The translations under genes and the position numbers were made by a program. Of a stretch of DNA of 49,956 nucleotides, positions 649-42,720 are shown piece by piece. The DNA comes from a virus. The stretch's first letter is position 1. Each line of letters begins with the position of its first letter. Location of the stretch: IMG/VR virus record IMGVR_UViG_3300035698_021428. One strand, given 5' to 3'. Under the pieces are notes generated by a model. The model saw only the letters and a program-made list of their open reading frames with translations, did no database searches and was not told the DNA's origin.

Positions 649-1803
649 ATGACAACACCTAATTGGACAGAAGACGTTAGAGCAAAAGGTAACACAAAAA
701 TTACCTGGGCCAATCATCTTTGCGATGACGAGCAAGCGAACGTTGTCGGTCGCGTCGTTTTTGTTCGATCATTCGGTTCGTTGACCTTCATCGTTATCCG
801 CGATGCGGCAGATAGTATACAGATTGGACTGAAGGGCAAGATTGCTCCGCCGCCGATGTGGAGCATTATCTCCGTTCATGGCGTAACTGGTAAGACCAAG
901 AAGGGCGAGCATACTGTTTGGACAGAGAAGTTTGAGTTGCTTGCTGAATGCAACGGAAATATGCCTGACAAGTTTCATGGCATCGAAAATGCTGAATACA
1001 TTTACAACAATAGGCCAGCGCATCTTATCGCTAATCCTGATCATTCTCATAATCTAATGATGCGTAGCCGAATTATTCGGGAGCTTCGTAGACGGCTTGA
1101 AGATGTTCATGCCTTTATGGAAGTCGAAACTCCCTTATTGAACGATGAACCTACAGGTGCCAATGCTAAGCCGTTCATAACTCATCATAATGCAGAGAGC
1201 GAAGACAAGTACCTGAGAATTGCTCTTGAGGTTCCGCTGAAGAAAGCTATCATTGCAGGTTTTCCTAATGTTTTTGAAATCGGTCGTGTATTCAGGAATG
1301 AAGGCGTTGACCGAACTCACCGCCCTGAGTTTACGATGGTTGAGATGTATTCATCTCCTGGTACGCTACAGAACATGAAGGATCTGTTCATTGACCTTGT
1401 ATCTCATTTGCGTGGAGAGTATATCAAGATTCCGACCTATGAGTATGACGACCTTGTAGCTGAACATGGCGAAGATTTTGATGAGCATATGCAGGAACTT
1501 TGCTTCGTCGCTGGTCAGCCTCTTGAACAGACACCGCTTTGCAAGGCTCGTGCTGATGGAAAGGCTGATAGGTTCGAGATCTTCGGTAGAGGCTTCGAGA
1601 TCGCCAACGCTTTTCAGGAGGTTCATACCGCCGAGGAACAGAGAGAGCGTCTTAGCGGCCAAACAGAAGGCTCTGATGACGGCTTGATTGGCGCTCTTGA
1701 GTACGGAATGGCTCCAACAGGCGGAATGGGTATCGGTATTGACCGATTGGTTATGTACCTGCTTGAAATAAACAATGTAAGAGACGTAATTCTTTTTCCA
1801 TAA
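649..1803 (+). CDS. lysS: lysyl-tRNA synthetase-like class II aminoacyl-tRNA synthetase, compact (384 aa)
   Basis: N-terminal OB-fold-like segment (VVGRVVFVRSFGSLTFIVIRD). Motif 2 'FEIGRVFRNEGVDRTHRPEFTMVEMY' is LysRS-type (FRNEG / H.PEFT). Motif 3 is 'GGMGIGIDRLVMYL'. About 120 aa shorter than bacterial LysS. Confidence 0.8.
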   Translation: MTTPNWTEDVRAKGNTKITWANHLCDDEQANVVGRVVFVRSFGSLTFIVIRDAADSIQIGLKGKIAPPPMWSIISVHGVTGKTKKGEHTVWTEKFELLAECNGNMPDKFHGIENAEYIYNNRPAHLIANPDHSHNLMMRSRIIRELRRRLEDVHAFMEVETPLLNDEPTGANAKPFITHHNAESEDKYLRIALEVPLKKAIIAGFPNVFEIGRVFRNEGVDRTHRPEFTMVEMYSSPGTLQNMKDLFIDLVSHLRGEYIKIPTYEYDDLVAEHGEDFDEHMQELCFVAGQPLEQTPLCKARADGKADRFEIFGRGFEIANAFQEVHTAEEQRERLSGQTEGSDDGLIGALEYGMAPTGGMGIGIDRLVMYLLEINNVRDVILFP

Positions 1804-1844: not shown

Positions 1845-2036
1845 ATGGCAATCAATGATATTAAGAAACTAGGAGATCAGCTAGCAGGGCTCAAGACTCC
1901 TCAGGAAGCTCGTCAAGTTGGGCAGTCGCTTGATGCTGCTCTCAATGGACAAGAACCGCCAACAGCAGGAGAAGCCATTACAAAGGATCCTGCGCCAACT
2001 CAGCCGCCTTTATCAGCGGCAGCACGCCATCAGTGA
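1845..2036 (+). CDS. hypothetical protein (63 aa), weak call
   Basis: ORF track only. No clear RBS. The 3' end overlaps the tRNA at 2025. Confidence 0.3.
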   Translation: MAINDIKKLGDQLAGLKTPQEARQVGQSLDAALNGQEPPTAGEAITKDPAPTQPPLSAAARHQ

Positions 2037-2113
2037 GCGGCAGGACGCTCACCAGCCTCCTAAGCTGGCTCCTTCGAGAGAAGGTTTCTAGGTTCGAATC
2101 CTAGTGATGGCGC
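2025..2113 (+). tRNA. non-canonical long-variable-arm tRNA; hand-read anticodon CCU (2059-2061); an 8-bp acceptor / 5-bp T stem (tRNA-Sec-like fold) is possible
   Basis: Acceptor cgccatca/tgatggcg. D stem gagcg/cgctc. Anticodon arm ccagc-ctCCTaa-gctgg. The 19-nt variable arm has stem ccttc/gaagg and a GAGA loop. T arm is ctagg-ttcgaat-cctag. Confidence 0.6.
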
Positions 2114-2130
2114 TTTGACTAACAGATATT

Positions 2131-5115
2131 TTATGCTTCTCTTGCGGCTAAATATATTTTGTTATCTGCAAGTTGAACAAAAGTTAGCGGCATTCCGCCT
2201 AAAGCGGCTTCATAATACGCAACTGGAGTGCCTGTAACTTGCGTAAAAATAAGTTGGTTGTTTGCATTTACTGATAATGGAACTCCATTCCATGTAGTAG
2301 AATATGCAACTTGCGTTAAATAATTTCCAAGATCTTGTTCTTCAGTTATTGGCATATATCTTCTATTTTGGCTATCTATATATGTAGCAAATCGAGTGCC
2401 TTTATAAACAAAAGTTTGCGAATGTAGGTTTGCTGATTGGTTTTCAACCCAAACTCCAAGAGAGTTTTGACCAAGAGAATTTGTAAAATAAGTTGATGAT
2501 ATTCCTCCTAGAGAGACTACTCCTCCTGTTTCTGTAAAATCAGTTGAATAAACTACATTGAGACTATGGTCTTCGCTACTATTGGCAACTATAGCAATAG
2601 GATTTCCTCCTATTCTAACTGCATGATTTGCCATAATAGTAAAATTACTTACTGTAGAAGCAGCGGGCGGTAATGGCGTTGTTATCTCTTCAGGAACAAT
2701 TAGTATGGCAGCAGCCTTTGTTCCTGCTGGTTGACCGAATATAGTAGAAAATGGATCTTGTCCGCCGCTGCCGCCTTCGCCTGCTCCGACAGCGCTCGTT
2801 GCTCCTACATGAATATATCCAGCAGGCCAAGATCCATTAATAATACCTTCTATGTTTTGGCTTCCGCTAATTAAGCCAGTTAATATCAATGCTCGGCCTC
2901 TCGGCGGCGTAGAAACAGAAACTAATCGTCTTCCTGCTGCGGCAGTTACGCTAATAGTGCTTGCAACAGAAACAGTATCATCGACATCTATTTTCCAAAC
3001 ACCGACACCTGCAAAGAGAGTTGTTGCGCTCATTGTTACTATAAGATCCCCAGTAGAAGATGCTTGGACTTTATACCATTGAGTATGAAATCGATTAGAT
3101 GCTGAACTCGCATTGTCATCAGCAAGCTCTATAGTATCAAGATCGATTTCTCCGCCTGTTGGGGTTGTGTCATATACGGTACCTGCAACATCTAAAGTAA
3201 TAACATCTTTAAGCGTTCCGTCATTCATGACAGATATAACGCCAACAATATATTCACCTGTTGCAGCAAAAGCATTTGAAATTGTTTTTGTTGTAAAGTT
3301 GACAGTAGAAGCTTCAAATGCTTTGAATGCTGTTTCTGAACCATGATCAGAATAAACGTTTCTATCTACAGAAGAAGTGTTGGTAAGAGTTGCGCTCTCA
3401 GCAGTTGAATCTATTGTGAAATCATATTCTTGACTTGGATCAATCCCGCTAAAAGATGTTCCAAAACGAGCATTATTTGCCCTGGAAAGAGCTTGAGACT
3501 GAGTTAGCTCTGTTCCGTCCCATATAGCAATTCTGTTTACCTGGCAAGGCGCAGAATCATCATAATTTGTGCCATCGAAACGAACGCCTGAGGTTGTTAT
3601 TTTTGAATTTCCTGTACCGCCATAACTGTCTGCTGTCTTTGTTCCTAATCCTCCGAGCACAACTTCGTACTGAAAATCTTTAACAAGTTTACCATTTATA
3701 TAGATAAGCCAATGGCCATTGCCATCATGTGTTAATAAAATATGATATTCTTTTCCTGGCATAAGAGGTATGCCAGAGTTGAGATTATAGCTATTGATAC
3801 TTCCGCCTGTTCTCTCGATGGAAAGATAATTAAATTGCATACATCTCAGAACTAGGCCTTTCCAACCGTTAGCATCTGGATCTACTGTTGCAATATATAA
3901 ACCTCCATTGAATTCATTTGCTACAGCAAGACCAGTTGGAGGAACTTGGGGGTCGCCTTCTCCTAGAAGAAGCAAAGGATGAAGGATGCCCTCGCTATTG
4001 CCATCTACAATTCCATCTGTATCGAGAGGATATCTAGGGATGCCATACCATTCCATTGTTGATGGGCCAGCGTCTATAGAGTTATTTGCAAGAACAATTC
4101 GACCATCAGAGTTATTTAGCTTAACAGCTTTTGTATTTCCTTGAGCTAAATTTTCTTCTTCTTGTCCTGATAATTCAGAAAAAACTAAGGCATAATAGTT
4201 TCTTCCTGAAATATTGTAATCGCTATTAACAGTTATACCAGAAGCAGAAATGCCTACTATTTGACTATCTGTTTTTATAACGAGAGTCCCCCCTCCATCG
4301 TCATCAAGTATCTTGTAGTTATTTGAAAGCATGTCTTTTGTAATAAAAGCATGCGGCTCAATATTTAGGTTTCCTGCTGTATTGGGACCATCTATAATAA
4401 AAGCGGCAGAGCCATTTGTTGCTATAGAAATAACTCTTCCGTTTGAACCATCGCCTGTCCATGAAACAACTTCAAAATCACTTACAGGAGACTGCGTTGT
4501 AAAGAAAGCTAAAGCTTCTATACCTTCACCTAGAGATATGCCGTTATTTTGATTAACCTCAACATCACCTGTTAAAGTAATAGTTCCGTTTCCCAAAGCA
4601 GAAATACGGGCAGCAATGCCTCCTCCATAATCCATATGGATGTTATTTGGCATTGCCTGCGCATAAACAATGGCAGGCTGACTGCTATCCCTCTTTACAA
4701 AAACAGCTTGAGGAGTTGCGTTCTCATTACTGAAAGAGATAGTTCTGTCTGCTGTAGCGTTGCCTATCCAGGAGGTCTCTCTGAACATTCCGGAGCCATT
4801 ATCTTTTATGGCAAGATAATAATAAGCTATTCCGTCTACATTCGCATTTTCTGAAGCTCTGAATCCTTTTCCGTTGAATGGGTCAAAAACATGTCCGCCT
4901 AAAGGACCAATAGCCTCTTCGGAAGGACTAGCATCGAATCTTTGCGATCGACCATGCCATGAAATATTCGTTTTCCAAATAACTGGCAAATCACTAGCTG
5001 GAGCTATGATAACTAAATCAGGTTCAAAATCAAGATTGATAGCAAGCGATTCAGAGGAAACACCAGTATTACGAGATCCAGTATATGTTCCGACAGCAAT
5101 TAGGGGGGATGGCAT
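2131..5115 (-). CDS. large LamG/concanavalin-A-like lectin domain protein, probable fibre or receptor-binding protein (994 aa)
   Basis: Uninterrupted 994-aa ORF. LamG-type segment 'KEYHILLTHDGNGHWLIYINGKLVKDF'. Gly/Ser/Thr/Asn-rich beta-rich composition typical of phage fibres. Confidence 0.75.
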   Translation of the reverse strand: MPSPLIAVGTYTGSRNTGVSSESLAINLDFEPDLVIIAPASDLPVIWKTNISWHGRSQRFDASPSEEAIGPLGGHVFDPFNGKGFRASENANVDGIAYYYLAIKDNGSGMFRETSWIGNATADRTISFSNENATPQAVFVKRDSSQPAIVYAQAMPNNIHMDYGGGIAARISALGNGTITLTGDVEVNQNNGISLGEGIEALAFFTTQSPVSDFEVVSWTGDGSNGRVISIATNGSAAFIIDGPNTAGNLNIEPHAFITKDMLSNNYKILDDDGGGTLVIKTDSQIVGISASGITVNSDYNISGRNYYALVFSELSGQEEENLAQGNTKAVKLNNSDGRIVLANNSIDAGPSTMEWYGIPRYPLDTDGIVDGNSEGILHPLLLLGEGDPQVPPTGLAVANEFNGGLYIATVDPDANGWKGLVLRCMQFNYLSIERTGGSINSYNLNSGIPLMPGKEYHILLTHDGNGHWLIYINGKLVKDFQYEVVLGGLGTKTADSYGGTGNSKITTSGVRFDGTNYDDSAPCQVNRIAIWDGTELTQSQALSRANNARFGTSFSGIDPSQEYDFTIDSTAESATLTNTSSVDRNVYSDHGSETAFKAFEASTVNFTTKTISNAFAATGEYIVGVISVMNDGTLKDVITLDVAGTVYDTTPTGGEIDLDTIELADDNASSASNRFHTQWYKVQASSTGDLIVTMSATTLFAGVGVWKIDVDDTVSVASTISVTAAAGRRLVSVSTPPRGRALILTGLISGSQNIEGIINGSWPAGYIHVGATSAVGAGEGGSGGQDPFSTIFGQPAGTKAAAILIVPEEITTPLPPAASTVSNFTIMANHAVRIGGNPIAIVANSSEDHSLNVVYSTDFTETGGVVSLGGISSTYFTNSLGQNSLGVWVENQSANLHSQTFVYKGTRFATYIDSQNRRYMPITEEQDLGNYLTQVAYSTTWNGVPLSVNANNQLIFTQVTGTPVAYYEAALGGMPLTFVQLADNKIYLAAREA

Positions 5116-6679: not shown

Positions 6680-6762
6680 GCTGATGTGAGCCGAATTGGT
6701 AAGGCAGCACTCTTGTAAAGTGCCGAGGAAACTCACTGCAGGTTCGAGTCCTGTCATCAGCT
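6680..6762 (+). tRNA. long-variable-arm (class II-like) tRNA; hand-read anticodon UGU (6714-6716)
   Basis: Perfect acceptor gctgatg/catcagc. Leu/Tyr-like D loop gaattggtaa. Anticodon arm gcact-ctTGTaa-agtgc. The 14-nt variable arm has stem gag/ctc and a GAAA loop. T arm gcagg-ttcgagt-cctgt. Confidence 0.6.
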
Positions 6763-6768
6763 TTCAAA

Positions 6769-7005
6769 CGAGAAGGAGAACAGCCAACCCATCGCTCTAC
6801 CCGTCACTGTTTCCATACGGATGAGAGGAAGGTCAGGACTGCACTTCGCAAAAACTCAGGAGGCCGTAAAATAGCCGTTCGAACTGGGGAGGCAGCAACC
6901 TCAAACAAGCCTAGCGTGGGCGAAGCGCTATAATGGTTGGGTTGGGGGCCACAAGATAAATGATGGGATAGAACAGGATCCTGCCTACGGGCACTTTCCT
7001 TCTCG
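6769..7005 (+). ncRNA. rnpB: RNase P RNA, bacterial type-A-like but compact (~237 nt)
   Basis: CR-I-like 'GAGGAAGGUCAGGAC' at 6825-6839 (E. coli: GAGGAAAGUCCGGGC). 'AGAUAAAUGAU' at 6954-6964 (E. coli: AGAUGAAUGAC). 'AUAGAAC..UCCUGCCUAC' at 6968-6988 (E. coli: ACAGAACCCGGCUUAU). The P4 helix 6830-6838/6979-6986 has bulged U6833 and three compensatory changes. The P1 helix is 6769-6779/6995-7005. No credible ORF. Confidence 0.8.
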
Positions 7006-7452: not shown

Positions 7453-7553
7453 GTCTGCGTAGCTCAACGATAGAGCGCCCAACCTGCGATACAGTGTGCC
7501 CTTGGGAGACTGTCAGCTATGGGATGTTGCTGGTTCGAATCCAGTCGCAGACT
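7453..7553 (+). tRNA. tRNA-like gene (101 nt) with normal acceptor, D and T arms but a ~46-nt irregular anticodon region; anticodon not assignable by eye
   Basis: Acceptor gtctgcg/cgcagac. Arg-like D arm gtagctcaacgatagagc. T arm gctgg-ttcgaat-ccagt. Between them, cccaa...(a/t)tggg encloses the hairpin acagt-gtgcccttgggag-actgt. Confidence 0.5.
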
Positions 7554-9912: not shown

Positions 9913-10286
9913 ATAATGAAGAAGAATTGCTCAAAGCAGCTTTAGATCGTTGCGAGATCACTCATGAAGAGTTATCTTCTCACAAGATCTTTTATGAGCA
10001 GATATTCATGGGAGCAGGAGCTAGCCATAACTCTAAAGATAAAAATCGGTTCAATATGGATTTTTCAGGACAGGACTGCGCTTTACTTTACGAAAAAGTG
10101 AGAATAGCTTTATCTATGCTTTCTGGAGTCCAGCAATTAGAAACAAGCATATGTTCTTCACAAATGGAACCCGATGAGCACCTAGAAACGATTGAGTGCG
10201 AAACAGGACAATTAGAAATGATTGTTCAAGAAATAGCTATGGCTCTTACTGGAAAAGAAATAGGATTCAAAAATGAAAACGACTGA
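9909..10286 (+). CDS. hypothetical protein (125 aa)
   Basis: ORF track. Translationally coupled to both neighbours. Confidence 0.55.
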   Translation: MNNEEELLKAALDRCEITHEELSSHKIFYEQIFMGAGASHNSKDKNRFNMDFSGQDCALLYEKVRIALSMLSGVQQLETSICSSQMEPDEHLETIECETGQLEMIVQEIAMALTGKEIGFKNEND

Positions 10287-10701
10287 CAAAGTAGAACTTG
10301 TTGTTGGGGATTCTTATTGGTATGTCCAACTAGGACAAAGAATGACTGATGGGTCTTGGTTCTCTTCGCATCCAGTATATATATTTCCAGCAAAATATCT
10401 CGGACCAGAAGACAAGATGCACAAATTCGAACTAACATGCGCAATTGAAGGTAAAACTGAGCTTCTAGGCGGCTCTGATGAATATACAAGAATCAATGGT
10501 AGGATCTATGCTAATCAAATAAACGCTTGTAAAAGATCTGTGACTGTGAACAAAAAAGGTCGCAGGTTTCAGATGAGCAGAGTAAGAGAATTCAACAACG
10601 TTATTGCTGGACTCAAAACCACAATAGGAAAAATCGAAAAGCCTACCAGAAAAATGTGTTGTTGGCATTGTCACGGAACAGGCAAGCAAAATTACACCTG
10701 A
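10273..10701 (+). CDS. hypothetical protein (142 aa) with C-terminal CxxC pair
   Basis: ORF track. 'CCWHCHGTGKQ' at the C-terminus. Ends TGA TAA. Confidence 0.55.
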   Translation: MKTTDKVELVVGDSYWYVQLGQRMTDGSWFSSHPVYIFPAKYLGPEDKMHKFELTCAIEGKTELLGGSDEYTRINGRIYANQINACKRSVTVNKKGRRFQMSRVREFNNVIAGLKTTIGKIEKPTRKMCCWHCHGTGKQNYT

Positions 10702-11158
10702 TAAAAGAGCGTGGAGCATTGAGCGCGCATCCACTGAACGCCGAATCACTGAGCGACATAGTAGTCTTTTTGACTACATGAGCAAGTGAAGCTCTAAAGC
10801 GAACAAGGCGTTGTAGCAGATCCAAACGGACTGTAAAATCTCAAACCTTGTATGTCCCAACCATCGCAGCCCTGTCAGCCATCGAGCATGACAAGGTTAC
10901 TTGAAGGGTAGAGGCATGGATCTGCGATAAGCAGGTTGATGATTGGGAGAAAGTATACATGTTGGTAGTATGGAACCTTTCTGCGCTTAGTTGATCAGTG
11001 AAACAGATCTATAAAAATCTAACCAGCGCATTTACTTCGGGCCGCAGGACCGAAGTATGTGCCGAGCGAAGCGAGGCTACACAGAGAAAGACGTATATAA
11101 TATCTCAAAAATGACGAAGAAGTAATAGTGAGATCTTTTCAGCAACAGATCTTTAGAT
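10702..11158 (+). other. ~457-nt non-coding region rich in local hairpins, directly upstream of tRNA-His/Gln; candidate large structured RNA
   Basis: TAA/TGA stops are frequent in all frames. Hairpins include gtagtc-ttttt-gactac, acttcgg-gccgcagga-ccgaagt and agatct-tttcagcaac-agatct. Family not recognised. Confidence 0.25.
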
Positions 11159-11241
11159 GGTGGCTATGGCAGATTGGTAATGCACCTGGTTGTGGACCAG
11201 GAACCGTAAGGTTTATGCGGGTTCAAATCCCGTTAGTCACC
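11159..11241 (+). tRNA. tRNA-His (GUG) with encoded G-1 and an unusual 15-nt variable arm
   Basis: 5' g-gtggcta resembles E. coli tRNA-His GGUGGCUA. Anticodon arm cctgg-ttGTGga-ccagg. Variable arm aacc-gtaa-ggtt-tat. T arm gcggg-ttcaaat-cccgt. C73. Confidence 0.7.
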
Positions 11242-11249
11242 CTTTAGTT

Positions 11250-11321
11250 TGGGCTTTAGTGTAATCGGTAGCACAACAGTTTTTGATACTGTCAGTCTGG
11301 GTTCAAGTCCCAGTTGCCCAA
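11250..11321 (+). tRNA. tRNA-Gln (UUG)
   Basis: U1:A72. Anticodon arm acagt-ttTTGat-actgt, the same loop as E. coli tRNA-Gln. T arm ctggg-ttcaagt-cccag. Two U-U mismatches at the base of the acceptor stem. Confidence 0.7.
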
Positions 11322-11336
11322 TTTGAAAGGAAATAT

Positions 11337-11648
11337 ATGTCATCGCAATTTCCATCTAAAGTAAGTCAACTACTTCAAAATTTTGATGGTTGGCTTATCG
11401 GTTCTGCAGCTAATCCTGATAATCAAAACCCTAGAGACTTTGATATTCTCATCCCTTTTCATATGTGGCATAAAGCTTGTCTCTCAATACCTGAAAATGC
11501 CATTCCAAATAGCTTTGGCGGATGGAAGTTTATTGATAATAATGTTGAAATAGATATGTGGCCAGGCGATTTATCTTATCTTGCAGCAAGACCTAGATTT
11601 AAATACGCTTACCACTTAGCTAGCGATACCAGAATAAGTAAAATATAA
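11337..11648 (+). CDS. small nucleotidyltransferase-fold (Pol-beta-like) protein, 103 aa
   Basis: The ATG at 11337 follows the tRNA. 'WLIGSAANPDNQNPRDFDILI' fits the hG[GS]...D.D minimal NTase pattern. Confidence 0.5.
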   Translation: MSSQFPSKVSQLLQNFDGWLIGSAANPDNQNPRDFDILIPFHMWHKACLSIPENAIPNSFGGWKFIDNNVEIDMWPGDLSYLAARPRFKYAYHLASDTRISKI

Positions 11649-11672
11649 TCAAATACTTGAAAGGAAAAACAA

Positions 11673-12300
11673 ATGAGAATCGAGAAACAAGCAAAAGGCG
11701 TTAGACTACTCATGAACGACGAGGCTAAGAACCGGAGGTTGGTTCATCAATGCTTGCGTTGAAGCATCAGAAGCCGCTGGCTTCAATGAAATACTGCTTC
11801 CGCTCATTGAGCCAGAAAGTATCTATGAAGAAAAAGCGGGCACTGAGATTCTTAATCAAATGTACACCTTCAAAGACAAGGCAGGAAGAAACCTCTGTCT
11901 AAGACCCGAAGGTACTGCTACTGTCCAACTTGTTGCGCAGAAAATGCGGAACATGAAAGATGTGAAGCTATGGTATGAAACTCGTTGTTGGCGATACGAG
12001 CAGCCGCAGGCTGGGAGATACCGAGAATTCACTCAGTTCGGCGTAGAGTGGCTGAACCCCCGAAACCCTTCAGAGGCCCGAGAAAGTCTAGAAACGCTCG
12101 CCAGAGCGATTGTAGAGCGGCTGGGAGTTGATTACGAGTGGAACGGAACTGCCAAACGAGGATTGGCGTACTATATTGAAGATGGTTTTGAACTAAGCGT
12201 TCCGTCGCTTGTCGCTCAGAAGCAGGTGATTGGCGGTGGGGCTTATACTGAAGGCATCGGATTCGCCGTTGGCGTAGATCGTATTGCGTTGGCAATGTGA
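11673..12300 (+). CDS. histidyl-tRNA synthetase-like class II core (HisRS/HisZ-like, ~210 aa, no anticodon-binding domain), interrupted by a +1 frameshift near 11735-11745; possible pseudogene
   Basis: RBS plus ATG 11673 gives 29 codons, then TGA at 11760. The +1 frame continues with 'FINACVEASEAAGFNEILLPLIEP', 'LRPEGTA', motif 2 'RYEQPQAGRYREFTQFGVE', 'GGGAY' and motif 3 'GFAVGVDRIALAM'. Confidence 0.7.
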
Positions 12301-12374
12301 AAGGCATCCCGTGAAGGTGCGAATCTTTTCGGGATTTTAGACGATATGCTCTCTGCCTACAATAGGAGATTTTC

Positions 12375-12608
12375 ATGCCAGAGCTAACTGAAAAACGAAA
12401 ACGAATACTTGCCCTTGTTGAAACAATAACAGACGAACAAGCAATAGAATTGGTTTCTGAAGAAGAACTTGTTCCTAAGCTTCCTGTATTTCTACCTGCA
12501 AAAATAAGCAAAGAAAAGCTTCTCGAATTAGCTTTGGATATTAGAAAAACATGGCAGCAAAAAAGATCGTTGAAAAAGACGAGGATCTTAAGTGATCGAA
12601 GAATTTAA
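12375..12608 (+). CDS. hypothetical protein (77 aa)
   Basis: ORF track. AGGAG RBS upstream. Confidence 0.55.
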   Translation: MPELTEKRKRILALVETITDEQAIELVSEEELVPKLPVFLPAKISKEKLLELALDIRKTWQQKRSLKKTRILSDRRI

Positions 12609-23436: not shown

Positions 23437-26127
23437 ATGCAAGACAATGATTCCGGCGCAATCCGAGGATCATCAGGCGATCTTTTGATCCCTGAAGGTT
23501 CATATGCTCATTTTTAAGGACTAACAACTGGCGCAATTTCGACCAAGGTTGGGCCTGCAAGCGTTTCGCAATCGGGGCAAGAACGTCCTGTTGCGTTCGA
23601 TCCAGCAAGGCGACAATTCATTGAAGTTAGCCGAGAAAGTTCGGTCAAACTCAATGTTATCGCTGATGAAACCAGTTATGTTATTCTTTCAAATCCGTGC
23701 ATTGCAGTCGCAGACGGCGATGACCAGCTTATTTTTCCAGGATCTTCGGACAAGATTCCCAATCAAGGTCTAGAGAGCGGTCGAAAAGTTGTGGTTCATG
23801 GACCTGTCGAATTTTCGCTTTGGCCTGGACAGACTGCAGAAGTTGTCCCGGGTCATGCTCTTCGCTCAAATGAATATCTTGAACTTGTTGTTTATGATGC
23901 TGATGAAGCAAAAGCCAACTGGGAATCAGCCTCCGTTGTTGAGACCAAGAAAACTGGCGGCGATAAAGAAGATAAAGATGATACGCAGGTTACGTCTACT
24001 GCCCCTGCTGATCTTCTTATGGGACAACGATTGGTTGTCAAGGGAACTGAGGTTTCATTCTATCGTCCTCCAACTGGTATACAGGTTGTTCAGAACGAAG
24101 ACAATATCTTTATTCGACAAGCTGTTTCCCTTGAATTACTTGAATACTGTATTCTTATCGACGAAAATGGCAACAAAAGGTATGAGAAGGGACCAGCAGT
24201 TGTTCTTCCTCGTCCATCTGAACGATTTGAAAAAAGCTCTAGAGGCAATAGAAAATTTAGAGCCATTGAGCTTCAAGACCAGGCAGGCGTTCATATCAAA
24301 GCGCTCAAGACCTACCAGGATGACGACGGAAAAGATCGCAAAGCTGGTGATGAATTCTTCTTGACGGGCAAAGATCGTCCTATCTACTACCCTCGCGAAG
24401 AAGAAGCCGTTATTCCTTATAGCGATGGCGAAAAGATTCACTTCGCTGTTGCGGTTCCCAAGGGGGAAGGCCGCTACGTTATGAATAAGACCACCGGTGA
24501 GATCGCAACGATCATCGGCCCCAAGATGCTTCTTTGCGATCCGACTAATGAAGTCATCGTTCGTCGCATCCTTACTGACAGACAAAGTAATGATTGGTAT
24601 CCTGGTAATGATAACTCTAGGCAATACAATCGCAATCTTCGAGAGATTCAGGAAGCTGCAGGAACGGCTGGTGATTTTGTTGACGATACATCAACACGGC
24701 AGGCAGCAACCAGGGGGCTTCATTCGCTGCGAGAAAAAGGCAATCCAAGAGTAGGCGGAGCTTCGTTCTCAAGTATGTCCGCTTCCGCCGGATCGGAACG
24801 AGGTTTTGAAAGCTTCGAACAAGCTGGTTCAGCAATGATGGGAGAACTAGATCGGCCATCAAGCTATACAGAACCCAAAAGCATTACTCTTGATACACGT
24901 TTTGCAGGAGTTCCTGGTATTGAGCTTTGGACAGGCTACACCGTTATGGTCGTTGACAGAGAAGGAAACCGCCGAATCGTCAGCGGTCCAACCAATATTC
25001 TGCTCAATTATGACGAGTCATTAGAAATCATAGAACTTTCTACCGGCAAACCAAAATCAACAAAAGGATTGATTCGCACAGTATATCTTCGCAGAGATAA
25101 TAATAAGGTTTCCGATTATGTTGAAGTTGAGACAAAAGACCATGTGAAAGTACAAGTAAAACTGTCATTCCTGGTCAATTTTGTTGAAGACAATCCTAAT
25201 GACGATCAGGATGATACCGATTATCAAGAGCGTTGGTTTGCTAGCGAAAACTATGTCAAGCTTCTTTGCGATCATGTTCGCTCGATTCTTAAGGGCGAAG
25301 CTAAAAAGCACGATATCAATAACTTTTATATCAACTCAACATCTATCATCAGAGATATCATTCTTGGTAATCGTCAGGAAGATGGCAGAACAGGTATGTT
25401 CTTTGAACATAATGGTATGCATGTTATCGATGTTGAGGTTCTTGGAACAGAAATTCTTGATCACAGCATTGCTTCGCTACTTACTGGCTCTCAGCGAGAA
25501 GCAGTTGAATCAAGTATTCGTCTTCAGTCTGCCGAAAGAACGCTTAATGTAACTGAGCAAATGGAAGCGATGTCTCGTAAAGAAGCAGTTGCTAAGAATG
25601 AGACCAAGAAGCACGCACACGATCTAACGATAGAAAGCATTGGAAGAACTCTGAAGGAGTCCCTAGCAGACATATCTTCAGAACAAGACAAGTCCGTTCA
25701 TAGGCTTACTGCTCGTACTGCCGAAGCTGAAGCTACTAAAATGGCAAACGTTATTGAGGCCGAAGCTGCGGTCGCAGGAAGCGAGATTGAGCGAGAAGAT
25801 CAGAAACTCGATCATGAACAGAAAATCTTAGAAGCAGAAGAAATAGCTAGGCTTGACAAGGAAGCGATTGAAACCGAAGTCAAGGCCACAGTTGATAAGC
25901 TCAAGGCCCTTGAAGGTTCGGGGTTGACCGACGTTCTTGCTACGCTTGGTCGAGAAGACTTCTTGACCCGTATAGCTGAATCCAGCAATCTTGAACGATT
26001 GATTGGCGGAGCTAGCGTCCAAGATACTTTGACCGGAATTTTCGGCGTTGAGTCGCCTATTGCTAAGGCGTTCGTTGCTATCAAGGCAGGAAAGCCGCTT
26101 GCTCAATCTTTGCTCAATAGCGACTAG
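23437..26127 (+). CDS. major vault protein (MVP) homolog: vault repeats, SPFH-like shoulder and cap-helix (~896 codons) with one in-frame TAA at 23515-23517
   Basis: GGAGA RBS plus ATG 23437. 'LLIPEGSYAHF*GLTTGAISTKVGP..ERPVAF' vs human MVP '[25 protein letters not shown]..ERVLF'. 'GDEFFLTGKDRPIYYPREEEAVI' vs '[21 protein letters not shown]'. 'YVMNKTTGEIATIIGPKMLL' vs '[20 protein letters not shown]'. E/A/K-rich C-terminal helix. The track ORF 23791 starts at an internal GTG. Confidence 0.8.
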
Positions 26128-26302: not shown

Positions 26303-26655
26303 GGGGGCGATATGGAATCGCTTCAGTAGGGTAGGAAGGATTGTTGCGAGCCGGGGAACCATGCTTAGGCCCCGTAAAAAAGTATGGAATAATTAGTTGC
26401 CAACAGCAACCCACTCCGCATCGCTGCTTGACAGCGGTGCCTGCAAGTCCTGAACGCCGATACGGGATACGCAGAAGATTTTCGGCTGGTCGTCTGAACA
26501 ACTGTTTCAACCAACAGACGATGAGATAAAGGATGAGACCGCTCCCTGTCGCAGACTGTCGCTGGTCGGCTAGGGGCTAAGATAAAACATCGACTACGCT
26601 CGTAGAAACGCCCAACAAACTACTGAACACGGCGGTTCGAATCCGCCCGCCTCCA
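26303..26655 (+). ncRNA. ssrA: tmRNA (SsrA), tag ANSNPLRIAA
   Basis: 5' GGGGGCGAUAUGGAAUCGC.. pairs with 3' ..GGCGGUUCGAAUCCGCCCGCCUCCA (G3:U70, T arm). The tag ORF GCC AAC AGC AAC CCA CTC CGC ATC GCT GCT TGA lies at 26399-26431. Confidence 0.85.
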
Positions 26656-26664
26656 TTTAGAAAG

Positions 26665-31079: not shown

Positions 31080-32729
31080 ATGGCAACCAAACTTGGAAAA
31101 GGCGAGTATCCCAGCGATCATTCGCCAGAAGACTTTAAATGCTTTGGCCCTCCTGCTCAGGAAGACGGTCAGTTTGACGGCATGATGATGGCTGACATGG
31201 GCTGCTTCAAGCAAGATGGTACAGATTCCAACAAATTCTACCATGGCGCAGTTGTTCAATCCAAAAAAGATGATAGCTGGTATGCCTACTATGAATGGGG
31301 CAGAACTGGGAAAGGTTCTTCTGATAAGCAATTCGTTTGTTGTTCGTCGAAAGAAGAAGCTGAACAAGTATTCTGCAAGCAGATGCACTCCAAAAATGAC
31401 AAGCGAGGCGAATGGGTCAAGATAGGCAGTAAAGACATTCTAAGAGCGAAGACAGGCAAAGACTGCTACCTTATCCGTCCGCTCGCAAAGCGATCTCATG
31501 GCCTTCCAGACGCTCAGACAATCGTCCATGACGATAGCGGCAAAGCTGGCAGCGCCGTCGCTAAGAAAACAACCAAAAAGACCGGAAAGAAAACCAGCAA
31601 AAAGATTGCTAAGAAAAAATCAAACGTTGATCCAAAGACTCTTAGTCTTATGAAGGATATGAACGTTGCAGCGGTTGAATTTACTCGCTCGCAGGTTGAT
31701 AGCGATGCAGTCCCAACTCAAGGCGTTATCGATGAAGGCAGAGATGTTCTTATCGAAGCGGAAAAAAGAGTTAAGAAAATTGGATCAAAGCTTGAAGAAC
31801 AAATTAGCGATAGAGACCTTCGAGATCTAACGTATCATCTCTATTCTCGAATCGGGAAGCCAAAGCCTCTCAATACGCTTGAATCTGCCTGGATTCTTTC
31901 TCAAGACAACATCATGCGTTGGCGAATGGACCTTGATACATTTGAGCAGGCATTATATGCTCTTGACCTAGGCATTGGCAGCGATACTCAGAATACCTTT
32001 GATCCGTTCAATGGCATGAATATTGAGATGATTCATCTCGACCCGACTAAAACGGCTGAAGGTCAATTTATTCACAATTGGATGCCTGGCGCAACGAAAA
32101 ACGTCCACGGGCACGTTGGCGACATGAGTATTGTCAACGCATGGGGCGTTCGTCAAACTGATTTTGCACCAAAATTTGAAGCAACTGCTGCAAAGATTGG
32201 TAATCGCAATTTCACCCCATCTGACAAACCTATCAAGCAGCCCCGAAAACGATCTGATATCTCGCCAGAAATGGCTAAACTATTCGATCAAGCAAATGTC
32301 AATCTCTTATTCCATGGAACAAGATCTGTCAATGTTCCTGGCATTCTTCGCACAGGGCTAAGGCTCCCCAGAGAGCTTGTTGGAGTTGTCCTTACTGGCG
32401 CAATGTTTGGACCCGGTATCTATTGGGCCGATGATTGGAAAAAATCAGACGGTTACACTTCTCGACCAGGAACTTATTGGTCAAGAGGCGGGGGACAGGT
32501 CAAAGGTCGCAAGGCTTTTATGTTTGTTGCCAATGTTGCTCTTGGCAATCCTCATATTGCTCGCGGTCCTCAAGGATATACTGCTCCGCCGAAAGGTTGC
32601 GATTGTGTTGCAGGTCTTGCTAATAAGAGCAGCGTAGCCAACAACGAATGGATTGTTTACGACAGTATGCAAAATTCTCTTACATATCTTATTGAATACG
32701 AAGTTTCAGGCAGCAGCCGTCGCTGGTAA
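31080..32729 (+). CDS. poly(ADP-ribose) polymerase-like protein: WGR, Lys-rich linker, helical regulatory domain and PARP catalytic domain (549 aa)
   Basis: WGR 'FYHGAVVQSKKDDSWYAYYEWGRTGKG'. Linker 'AKKTTKKTGKKTSKKIAKKKS'. Catalytic H-Y-E triad: 'LLFHGTRSVNVPGIL', 'FGPGIYWADDW' and 'NNEWIVYDSMQNSLTYLIEYEV' (PARP1: '[22 protein letters not shown]'). Confidence 0.9.
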   Translation: MATKLGKGEYPSDHSPEDFKCFGPPAQEDGQFDGMMMADMGCFKQDGTDSNKFYHGAVVQSKKDDSWYAYYEWGRTGKGSSDKQFVCCSSKEEAEQVFCKQMHSKNDKRGEWVKIGSKDILRAKTGKDCYLIRPLAKRSHGLPDAQTIVHDDSGKAGSAVAKKTTKKTGKKTSKKIAKKKSNVDPKTLSLMKDMNVAAVEFTRSQVDSDAVPTQGVIDEGRDVLIEAEKRVKKIGSKLEEQISDRDLRDLTYHLYSRIGKPKPLNTLESAWILSQDNIMRWRMDLDTFEQALYALDLGIGSDTQNTFDPFNGMNIEMIHLDPTKTAEGQFIHNWMPGATKNVHGHVGDMSIVNAWGVRQTDFAPKFEATAAKIGNRNFTPSDKPIKQPRKRSDISPEMAKLFDQANVNLLFHGTRSVNVPGILRTGLRLPRELVGVVLTGAMFGPGIYWADDWKKSDGYTSRPGTYWSRGGGQVKGRKAFMFVANVALGNPHIARGPQGYTAPPKGCDCVAGLANKSSVANNEWIVYDSMQNSLTYLIEYEVSGSSRRW

Positions 32730-42648: not shown

Positions 42649-42720
42649 GCTTCGTTAGCTCAATGGTAGAGCAATAGTTTCTAAAACTACAGGTTGTCGG
42701 TTCGAGTCCGACACGAGGCA
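42649..42720 (+). tRNA. suppressor tRNA, anticodon CUA (reads UAG); body resembles tRNA-Lys
   Basis: Acceptor gcttcgt/acgaggc. D arm gctc-aatggta-gagc. Anticodon arm atagt-ttCTAaa-actac (anticodon 42681-42683, A27-C43 mismatch). T arm gtcgg-ttcgagt-ccgac. A73. Confidence 0.75.

Follow-up and report, generated by a model that had tools for sequence, protein, structure and literature searches.

The window analysed in this work is the whole stretch of 49,956 nucleotides of the IMG/VR virus record IMGVR_UViG_3300035698_021428. At positions 11159-11241, it contains a tRNA gene that combines a histidine anticodon with a hairpin in the variable region. Long arms in bacteria and their viruses are found on the tRNAs for Leu, Ser, Tyr, and Sec, and this split is treated as nearly fixed. 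The question raised by this locus is whether a gene that departs from the split still encodes a working tRNA-His and what its extra arm represents. An earlier reading of the same DNA (the sequence-only reading) had described a bacterial-type tRNA-His that belongs to a lineage-specific tRNA design and had suggested evasion of host anticodon nucleases or redirected aminoacylation as possible outcomes. The explanation favoured in this work, to which we assign a probability of about 0.65, is that the gene encodes a working histidine tRNA, neither a pseudogene nor a tRNA of changed identity, and that the arm is a structural appendage whose sequence is free.

The tRNA-His gene was called by ARAGORN, as the sequence-only reading had proposed to check, and the call tRNA-His(GTG) covers 11160-11242 with the anticodon at 11192-11194. 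The tRNA body at 11160-11241 (plus strand) is also matched by Rfam RF00005 with 58.4 bits and an E-value of 3.9e-10, which is the highest RF00005 score that any sense-codon tRNA of the window reaches. The acceptor stem, as read from the sequence, is 11160-11166/11234-11240 and is unbroken. It is followed by the D arm (11169-11183), the anticodon arm (11185-11201, GUG at 11192-11194), the T arm (11217-11233), and the discriminator C73 at 11241. The universal bases are all there (U8, A14, G18G19, U33, the T-loop UUCAAAU, and G53:C61). The acceptor stem of 7 bp, extended by G-1:C73, and the T stem of 5 bp give the 7/5 geometry. Folding 11159-11242 to the minimum free energy yields a cloverleaf in which the acceptor stem, with G-1:C73 included, reaches 8 bp, together with a fourth hairpin. 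The energy of this fold is -32.9 kcal/mol (z -3.1), and one of 200 shuffled sequences is equally stable. All 25 base pairs are standard. The reading as a bacterial-type tRNA-His with G-1:C73 is confirmed. A pseudogene was considered and rejected because the score is high (58.4 bits against a gathering score of 29), the stems are unbroken, and the universal bases are complete.

The ends of the gene are also those of a histidine tRNA. The encoded G-1 at 11159 (plus strand) pairs with C73 at 11241, and this assignment is based on the sequence, the fold, and the upstream context in the clade. G-1 is preceded by A-3 and U-2, and the resulting ..AUG|G context is common to almost all canonical tRNA-His genes of the clade. 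Bacterial RNase P prefers a U on the 5' side of its cut, and the conserved U before G-1 fits this preference. RNase P would cut after U-2 and, as G-1 is paired with C73, leave G-1 in place. The gene does not encode a 3' CCA and ends with CACCC followed by UUU. The search for promoter-like sites upstream of the gene identified none above the shuffled background. The next gene is a tRNA-Gln(UUG) with a normal variable loop at 11249-11322 on the plus strand (ARAGORN and Rfam), and these two genes, which are 7 nt apart, are probably co-transcribed.

The extra arm spans 15 nt at 11202-11216 on the plus strand, between the anticodon and T arms, and it was delimited by the RF00005 alignment, the fold, and ARAGORN. 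Its 4-bp stem AACC/GGUU is formed by 11202-11205 and 11210-11213. The loop GUAA (11206-11209) is a GNRA tetraloop, and the spacer UAU (11214-11216) is unpaired and lies directly before the T stem. The RF00005 alignment models 12 nt on the 3' side of the anticodon stem as an insertion. This position is the canonical extra-arm site, as in tRNA-Leu, tRNA-Ser, and tRNA-Tyr. The 10 nt in excess of the normal length fold into a compact hairpin of 4 bp that is capped by a GNRA loop. The stem-loop AACC-GUAA-GGUU-UAU that had been proposed from the letters is the fourth hairpin of the minimum free energy fold, and no alternative fold that takes up the extra bases was found.

Two ideas about the arm were tried and rejected. 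The GNRA cap does not set inserted arms apart, since it occurs with equal frequency in the Ser arms of these phages (25 of 32 tetraloops) and is also present in E. coli tRNA-Leu(UAG). The arm is also not considered to have been donated by a class II tRNA through recombination, as matches to other genes are confined to the T arm and acceptor and the best of them is to a short-arm tRNA-His; a single match of 13 nt to a Ser arm was identified with an E-value of 0.01.

The constraint on the arm was evaluated by comparison with an orthologue. Metagenomes were scanned with a pattern in which the length of the variable region was left free, and one close orthologue was identified at positions 3515-3598 of locus L066. 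The arm differs at 7 of 15 positions between the two genes and the body at 4 of 69 positions (Fisher p 3e-4), which corresponds to an arm turnover of about eight times the body rate. The arm of the orthologue, GCCG-GAAA-CGGU-AAU, has a 4-bp stem, a GNRA loop, and a 3-nt spacer, and all four pairs are kept. Two of the arm pairs have changed on both sides and one has changed on one side. The body has also undergone a compensatory change, from A7:U66 in the window to G7:C66 in L066, and all 25 pairs are standard in both genes. The covariation comes from two sequences alone, as L066 is the only close orthologue found, and 47 of 500 shuffles reach the same value, so this is a weak control. Each of the four arm pairs is represented by three to four pair types across seven long-arm tRNA-His genes, in which the distant arms were aligned by hand because MAFFT placed them one column off. 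A covariance model built from the window and L066 (R1) acted as a general tRNA detector and recovered no further close orthologue, and an exact 37-mer of the tRNA-His had no match in IMG/VR.

The pattern of change shows that selection holds the shape of the arm and leaves its sequence free. The compensatory changes in both the acceptor stem and the arm indicate purifying selection on the whole fold. An arm sequence that varies while its fold is kept argues against a sequence-specific binding site. The covariation means that the hairpin has to fold, which falls short of proof that the hairpin has a positive function.

The tRNA-His is accompanied by other long-arm tRNAs in the window. The tRNA-Thr(UGU) gene at 6680-6762 (plus strand; ARAGORN and Rfam) exhibits the same lineage trait with the extra arm GAG-GAAA-CUC, and the corresponding arm in locus L001 is GGG-GAAA-CCC. 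The tRNA-Arg(CCU)-like gene at 2026-2113 (plus strand; ARAGORN, fold z -4.0) has the arm CCUUC-GAGA-GAAGG and an unusually long D stem, and it was not reported by RF00005 even at an E-value of 0.1. The three long-arm tRNAs with anticodons other than Leu, Ser, and Tyr that the sequence-only reading had counted in the window were thus recovered as Arg(CCU), Thr(UGU), and His(GUG). The window contains 12 tRNA genes called by ARAGORN and one called by Rfam only (7453-7553). It also encodes a tmRNA, an RNase P-like RNA, a shortened LysRS, a HisRS fragment, and other genes. In L001, L011, and L066, a search for the RNase P-like RNA gave no match. The window is part of a huge-phage genome that is kin to Sinorhizobium phage Phosso. 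The DNA of positions 10000-12500 had no match in the INPHARED phage collection.

The distribution of long arms was determined by running ARAGORN on the window and 61 loci (1.22 Mb), which represent about 55 related phage loci. A total of 803 tRNA genes were identified, and 695 of them are unique. A variable region of at least 10 nt is present in 59 of the 544 tRNAs with anticodons other than Leu, Ser, and Tyr. The strict set was restricted to tRNAs in which the 7-bp acceptor stem is unbroken, the anticodon and T stems have 5 bp each, the T loop is canonical, and the D loop contains GG. A long arm is present in 42 of the 335 such tRNAs in the strict set, which is about 12% or one in eight. The long-arm tRNAs are spread over 24 to 28 of the 47 tRNA-bearing sources (24 in the strict set). 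The strict-set arms belong to tRNAs for Lys (9), Thr (7), Asn (7), Trp (4), Cys (4), Arg (4), Gln (4), and His (1). The Ala, Glu, Gly, Met, Phe, Pro, Val, and CUA classes of the strict set have no arm in 141 genes, compared to 42 arms in 194 genes of the other classes (Fisher p 1.7e-11). That seven amino-acid classes lack arms is compatible both with a filter imposed by partner enzymes and with the targeting of particular tRNAs. The tRNA-Leu genes depart in the opposite direction, with a short variable loop in 20 of 41 strict genes.

The design of the arms is uniform. The stems are 3-4 bp long. Tetraloops account for 37 of 57 loops, 28 of them being GNRA, and 43 of 57 arms have a 3' spacer of 3-4 nt. 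This spacer matches that of the Tyr arms of the same phages, whereas Ser arms have 0-2 nt and Leu arms have 1-2 nt. The Phosso genome encodes an 86-nt tRNA-Asn(GUU) and an 83-nt tRNA-Thr(UGU), each with redundant short-arm copies, and five of its six tRNA-Leu are short-looped. The tRNAs that carry the arm vary by phage; tRNA-His is armed in the window and unarmed in L001-L012. Six further armed tRNA-His genes were identified (L013, L014, L045, L057, L058, and L066), and all of them have G-1 and C73. All of these except the L066 gene have mismatched acceptor stems and may be less functional.

The arm of the tRNA-His is one case of a clade-wide trait. This supports and extends the lineage-specific design that had been proposed: in the suggested comparison, related huge phages have arms of like kind on about 12% of their tRNAs with class I identity, and the L066 orthologue keeps the arm through compensatory changes. 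The pattern scan of 185,579 reference genomes identified no cellular genome with such a long-arm tRNA-His, and the literature search identified no description of long-arm class I tRNAs in huge phages.

The identity of the tRNA-His was evaluated next to its anticodon class. The gene keeps the complete bacterial set of His identity elements. The discriminators of long-arm tRNAs in the clade are those of short-arm tRNAs of the same class, namely C in 6 of 6 His, U in 6 of 6 Cys, G in 6 of 7 Asn, and G in 6 of 7 Trp genes. The class II tRNAs of the same phages have G73 or U73 with Ser arms and A73 with Leu and Tyr arms. An identity switch is unlikely because the discriminators match each anticodon class. 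The T arm and 3' acceptor strand of the tRNA-His are closest to those of a short-arm tRNA-His in L028 (92% over 26 nt). By these features, the gene is a His tRNA into which an insertion was introduced and not a class II tRNA with a mutated anticodon.

A candidate partner enzyme is encoded close by. The mini histidyl-tRNA synthetase gene (mini-HisRS) is located at 11673-12300 on the plus strand, and the tRNA-His lies 430 nt upstream of it. It was identified by Pfam tRNA-synt_His and by NCBIfam hisS, the latter with 159 bits, which is below the cut-off. The 0-frame ORF spans 11673-11762, and the main ORF runs on in the +1 frame up to a stop at 12300. The product aligns to residues 8-154 and 233-320 of the T. 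thermophilus HisRS, and it comprises the class II catalytic core but neither the insertion domain nor the anticodon-binding domain. Searches with the mini-HisRS recovered 9 and then 56 IMG/VR loci on contigs of up to 608 kb. They also recovered the cultured 469-kb phage Phosso, in which the gene has a histidyl-tRNA synthetase annotation and neighbours a tRNA-His. A canonical G-1/C73 tRNA-His is located within 1.5 kb of the mini-HisRS in 20 of 54 non-redundant loci.

The mini-HisRS probably recognises only the acceptor end, because it consists of the catalytic core only. The G-1:C73 pair is the main determinant for HisRS, and HisRS reduced to its catalytic domain and minihelix substrates of the acceptor stem are both known to function. 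For these reasons, the mini-HisRS could plausibly charge tRNA-His whatever the tRNA body. Class II synthetases such as HisRS approach the tRNA from the variable-loop side, so the arm could hinder a full-length host HisRS. Such hindrance could make the arm more than a neutral appendage.

The mini-HisRS gene also has a feature of its own. It is split over two frames in 24 of 55 loci, including the window and the complete Phosso genome. The N-terminal 0-frame ORF always reaches [Leu/Val]-His, followed by 0-12 codons and a stop, and the conserved protein goes on in the +1 frame. The candidate shift site [C/G]UU-CAY, in which CAY is a His codon, is present in all 24 split genes. A Shine-Dalgarno-like run (GGAGG or GGGGG) is located upstream in 19 of 24, mostly 3 nt before the UU codon, and UGA directly follows the site in 13 of 24. 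The candidate programmed +1 frameshift cassette of the window is located at 11734-11748 on the plus strand and consists of GGAGG (11734-11738), a 3-nt spacer, GUU (11742-11744), CAU (11745-11747), and then C. L020 and L042 have a +1-frame stop directly before UUC, and the 0-frame stop is located directly after CAC in L020 and two codons after CAU in L042. These stops pin the shift to a slip from GUU to UUC while the A site holds the His codon. L008 has CUU-CAU-C elsewhere in the same gene. The prfB site is composed of a Shine-Dalgarno sequence, 3 nt, and CUU-UGA-C, and the mini-HisRS site has the same layout except that the stop is replaced by a His codon. This likeness suggests a feedback in which scarce His-tRNA would cause a pause, the pause would promote the +1 shift, and the shift would yield full-length HisRS. 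The literature search identified no frameshifted HisRS or such autoregulation, and the frameshift-controlled mini-HisRS could be a new case of autoregulation by recoding.

The favoured explanation, a working tRNA-His with a structural appendage, can be put as a sequence of steps. Following cleavage by RNase P, HisRS would attach histidine through G-1:C73, and the adjoining mini-HisRS is a likely enzyme. The arm would project from the tRNA core as in class II tRNAs, whose long arms pass EF-Tu and the ribosome, and it would be compatible with both. It would be tolerated because the enzymes that handle armed tRNAs do not read the variable region. It may be retained either solely because an unfolded insertion would be harmful or because its bulk shields or marks the phage tRNAs.

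The possibility that the gene is decaying or has a non-translational role, as a pseudogene, a decoy, or a processing signal, is very improbable. The tRNA arrays of these phages are highly redundant and some relatives have armed tRNA-His with several acceptor-stem mismatches, which would suit decay, but the gene in the window has a perfect acceptor stem, every universal base, and the highest sense-codon score, and L066 has compensatory changes in its arm as well as in its acceptor stem, where G7:C66 replaces A7:U66. It is hardly credible that the arm redirects charging to SerRS, LeuRS, or TyrRS, with the His codons then being read as another amino acid, in the manner of nev-tRNAs and allo-tRNAs. 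Recognition of a long variable arm by bacterial SerRS is indeed largely independent of the anticodon (PMC5389517). However, G-1:C73 and GUG are intact, and the discriminator is C instead of the G/U of Ser or the A of Leu and Tyr tRNAs in the same phages. The 4-bp arm is shorter than most Ser arms (at least 5 bp), its 3-nt spacer exceeds those of Ser (0-2 nt) and Leu (1-2 nt), and the geometry is 7/5 and not 8/4. The redirected aminoacylation that had been suggested from the sequence is thus not upheld, as the full His set is intact and the discriminators follow the anticodon class and not Ser, Leu, or Tyr.

What the arm is for divides the remaining explanations. It may be a functionless expansion, where insertions in large and redundant tRNA arrays survive at the one site that the fold permits, in those tRNAs whose partners ignore the region, and where a tight hairpin is kept since a floppy insert would misfold the tRNA. 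This explanation is tenable and somewhat doubtful. It is consistent with the unconstrained arm sequence, with GNRA as a common stable cap that is as frequent in Ser arms and occurs in E. coli tRNA-Leu, with the different arm carriers between phages (His in the window and not in L001-L012), and with the redundant short-arm Asn and Thr copies of Phosso. However, comparable arms are to our knowledge unreported in other tRNA-rich phages or bacteria, so redundancy alone does not produce them, and the arms outlast heavy sequence turnover without loss. An unlikely alternative, which takes up the nuclease evasion suggested in the sequence-only reading, is that the arm acts as a steric shield or self-mark against host tRNA-cleaving defence nucleases or other host enzymes, or as a tag for a phage factor. 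The known targets of anticodon nucleases and VapC-type toxins overlap Lys, His, Asn, Arg, Trp, Cys, Gln, and Thr, which are arm-bearing classes in these phages. The phages carry their own synthetase cores, tmRNA, and RNase P-like RNA, and an arm that evolves about eight times faster than the body is what an arms race would give, but a neutral model predicts this rate equally. Known evasion by phage tRNAs involves changes in the anticodon loop and not in the variable region, and neither a nuclease nor an arm-binding protein was identified.

The armed tRNA-His, the core-only HisRS, and the His-codon frameshift could also be combined into a host-independent and self-regulating His-decoding module in which the arms are an insulation mark, a proposal that we regard as quite speculative. 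The mark would keep off host synthetases, modification enzymes, and defence nucleases, and the phage enzymes that recognise only the acceptor end would still accept the tRNA. If true, the module would be a natural and partly orthogonal translation system in a virus. Apart from this proposal, the clade of 400-600-kb phages breaks the arm rule both ways, as eight class I identities are armed and about half of the tRNA-Leu are unarmed. It provides a natural experiment on which synthetases and other partners tolerate an arm and on the cost or benefit of that arm. Bench tests are possible because Phosso is cultured, infects Sinorhizobium meliloti, and carries examples. Naturally tolerated arms on eight more identities are also of use to engineers of orthogonal or tagged tRNAs.

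The tRNA-His was compared with the E. coli hisR gene, which was taken by its coordinates; blastn of the tRNA-His against E. coli genomes gave no match. Both genes share the GUG anticodon, the encoded G-1:C73, and the identical 8-nt 5' acceptor strand GGUGGCUA. The close resemblance to E. coli tRNA-His that had been noted from the sequence corresponds to 52 identical bases among 74 aligned positions (70%), with a 10-nt insertion in the variable region as the one long gap. The tRNA-His differs from hisR in its 15-nt hairpin in place of 5 unpaired nt, G4:U69 in place of a G:C pair, a shorter D loop, and the CCA that is not encoded.

The tRNA-His also has the structure that defines class II tRNAs, a variable region of at least 10 nt with a stem-loop. 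The Tyr arms of the same phages have the same 3-nt 3' spacer. E. coli tRNA-Leu(UAG), whose short arm has 3 bp and a GNRA tetraloop (PMC12360207), and bacterial tRNA-Tyr share with the tRNA-His the insertion site and a 3-4-bp stem with a GNRA tetraloop. Class II tRNAs differ in that they have Leu, Ser, Tyr, or Sec identity in bacteria, whereas the tRNA-His has His identity and a discriminator that is neither A nor G. The arm of the tRNA-His cannot be an identity element.

The class II arm on a class I anticodon is a likeness to the nematode nev-tRNAs, which reportedly have a V-arm with Gly or Ile anticodons, are charged with Leu, and misread codons. The identity of nev-tRNAs contradicts their anticodon, whereas the identity elements in the window match it. 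A mismatch of the nev-tRNA type was therefore rejected, as the discriminators follow the anticodon class and the 3' half is closest to a short-arm tRNA-His. Allo-tRNAs combine an 8/4 or 9/3 geometry of the acceptor and T stems with a long D stem and a discriminator of the Ser type, G73 or U73 (Mukai et al., 2017; PMC5389517). In phages and alpha-proteobacteria, the 8/4 tRNA-His has no G-1 and carries A73 or U73 (PMC5389517). These tRNAs share with those of the window their unusual structure, their location in phage tRNA clusters, and the combination of a long variable arm with non-Ser anticodons. Assignment of the tRNA-His to either group was rejected because of its 7/5 geometry and its G-1 and C73. 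Engineered tRNAs with hairpin tags in the variable arm indicate that a hairpin at this site can be compatible with translation (PMC7590224). Those tRNAs are synthetic and are built on an allo-tRNA chassis, whereas the armed phage tRNAs are natural and clade-wide.

The gene of mini-HisRS, the histidyl-tRNA synthetase of these phages that consists of the catalytic core only, requires a +1 frameshift in 24 of the 55 loci. The frameshifted gene of the window is located at 11673-12300 (+) and its candidate frameshift cassette at 11734-11748. The other related loci that require the frameshift are L001, L003, L011, L016, L018, L020, L021, L023, L025, L027-L031, L033, L034, L036-L038, L042, L044, L049, and L067 (the cultured Sinorhizobium phage Phosso), and also L008. 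The shift site is invariably [C/G]UU-CAY, in which the CAY triplet codes for His. Most of the sites are preceded by an SD-like run (GGAGG or GGGGG), with a spacing to the UU codon that is mostly 3 nt, and UGA often follows the site directly. In L020 and L042, the flanking stops fix the position of the shift at GUU>UUC. The architecture of this site is similar to that of prfB, but a His codon occupies the A site. As suggested by this arrangement, the supply of His-tRNA may autoregulate HisRS through the frameshift. No account of such autoregulation of a frameshifted HisRS was found in the literature searched.

Two types of tRNA with the GUG anticodon coexist in the clade. The canonical tRNA-His that adjoins the mini-HisRS gene has an encoded G-1 and C73. 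The second type lacks G-1 and exhibits a G1:U72 pair and A73, as identified at L023 9290, L027 8982, L028 10695, L030 9378, L031 9267, and L068 9719 (Phosso). The absence of G-1 together with A73 denotes the alpha-proteobacterial type of tRNA-His (PMC5389517), and the second type belongs to it. The coexistence of both types hints at a pairing of the canonical tRNA-His with mini-HisRS, one that may not be served by the host HisRS. In nearly every canonical tRNA-His gene of the clade (11156-11159 in the window), the three bases that precede G1 are A-U-G, thus a U stands 5' of G-1. This U is consistent with an RNase P cut that falls one nucleotide 5' of the standard position.

A match to bacterial class A RNase P RNA (229 nt) is located at 6775-7003 (+) in the window, directly 3' of tRNA-Thr(UGU). 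The match scored 49.9 bits (E 4e-13), short of the gathering score (100), and it lacks most of the specificity domain. This candidate may represent a miniature RNase P RNA of the phage. No RNase P-like RNA was found when it was sought in L001, L011, and L066, the last of which is a metagenome contig with a close orthologue of the window tRNA-His.

Other translation genes are also present in the window. The shortened lysyl-tRNA synthetase (384 aa) at 649-1803 (+) scored 329 bits, under the NCBIfam cut-off of 468, and exhibits 81% identity to a gene on a 488-kb IMG/VR contig. Among the tRNA classes of the clade, Lys carries an extra arm most often. Two tRNAs with the CUA anticodon (amber suppressors) are located at 42649-42720 (+) and 45505-45577 (+), with 68.6 and 63.9 bits, and another is located at L068 27258 in Phosso; the ORF lengths within the window exhibit no clear sign of TAG recoding. 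A one-piece tmRNA at 26303-26658 (+), with 129.6 bits, encodes the tag peptide ANSNPLRIAA. The window also encodes a major-vault-protein-like ORF with Vault repeats and a shoulder domain at 23791-26127 (+) and, at 31080-32729 (+), a WGR domain alongside a PARP catalytic domain. Both are uncommon among phages.

About half of the tRNA-Leu genes of the clade (20/41 in the strict set) exhibit a short variable loop of 4-6 nt and A73. Examples are located at L002 20095-20406, L003 5664 and 6068, and L068 1268, 3435, 8424, 8605, and 19781 (Phosso). These leucine tRNAs have the shape of class I, the opposite case to the extra arms on class-I tRNAs.

Several other tRNA genes are enlarged. Two tRNA-like genes, 101 nt at 7453-7553 (+) in the window and 124 nt at L066 3606-3729, were detected by Rfam only, as end-to-end matches to the tRNA model that are far above normal tRNA length, and both were called without an anticodon. 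The window gene has a 38-nt insert in place of the anticodon loop region that folds as an extended hairpin. The small contig L066, which also holds the tRNA-His orthologue, has a 92-nt tRNA-Ala(CGC) with an extra arm at 2111-2202. A 92-nt long-arm tRNA with the GUG anticodon was identified at L070 3498-3589, on a contig that binning placed in a Methanobacteriota MAG; the contig may be mis-binned, or the tRNA may be an allo-tRNA-like gene. The long-arm tRNA-Arg(CCU) at 2026-2113 (+) in the window was called by ARAGORN only and was not matched by the Rfam tRNA model at E 0.1. Its predicted fold has a short D loop and a long D stem (up to 7-bp) that directly stacks onto the acceptor stem, and thereby resembles the folds of tRNA-Sec or allo-tRNAs.
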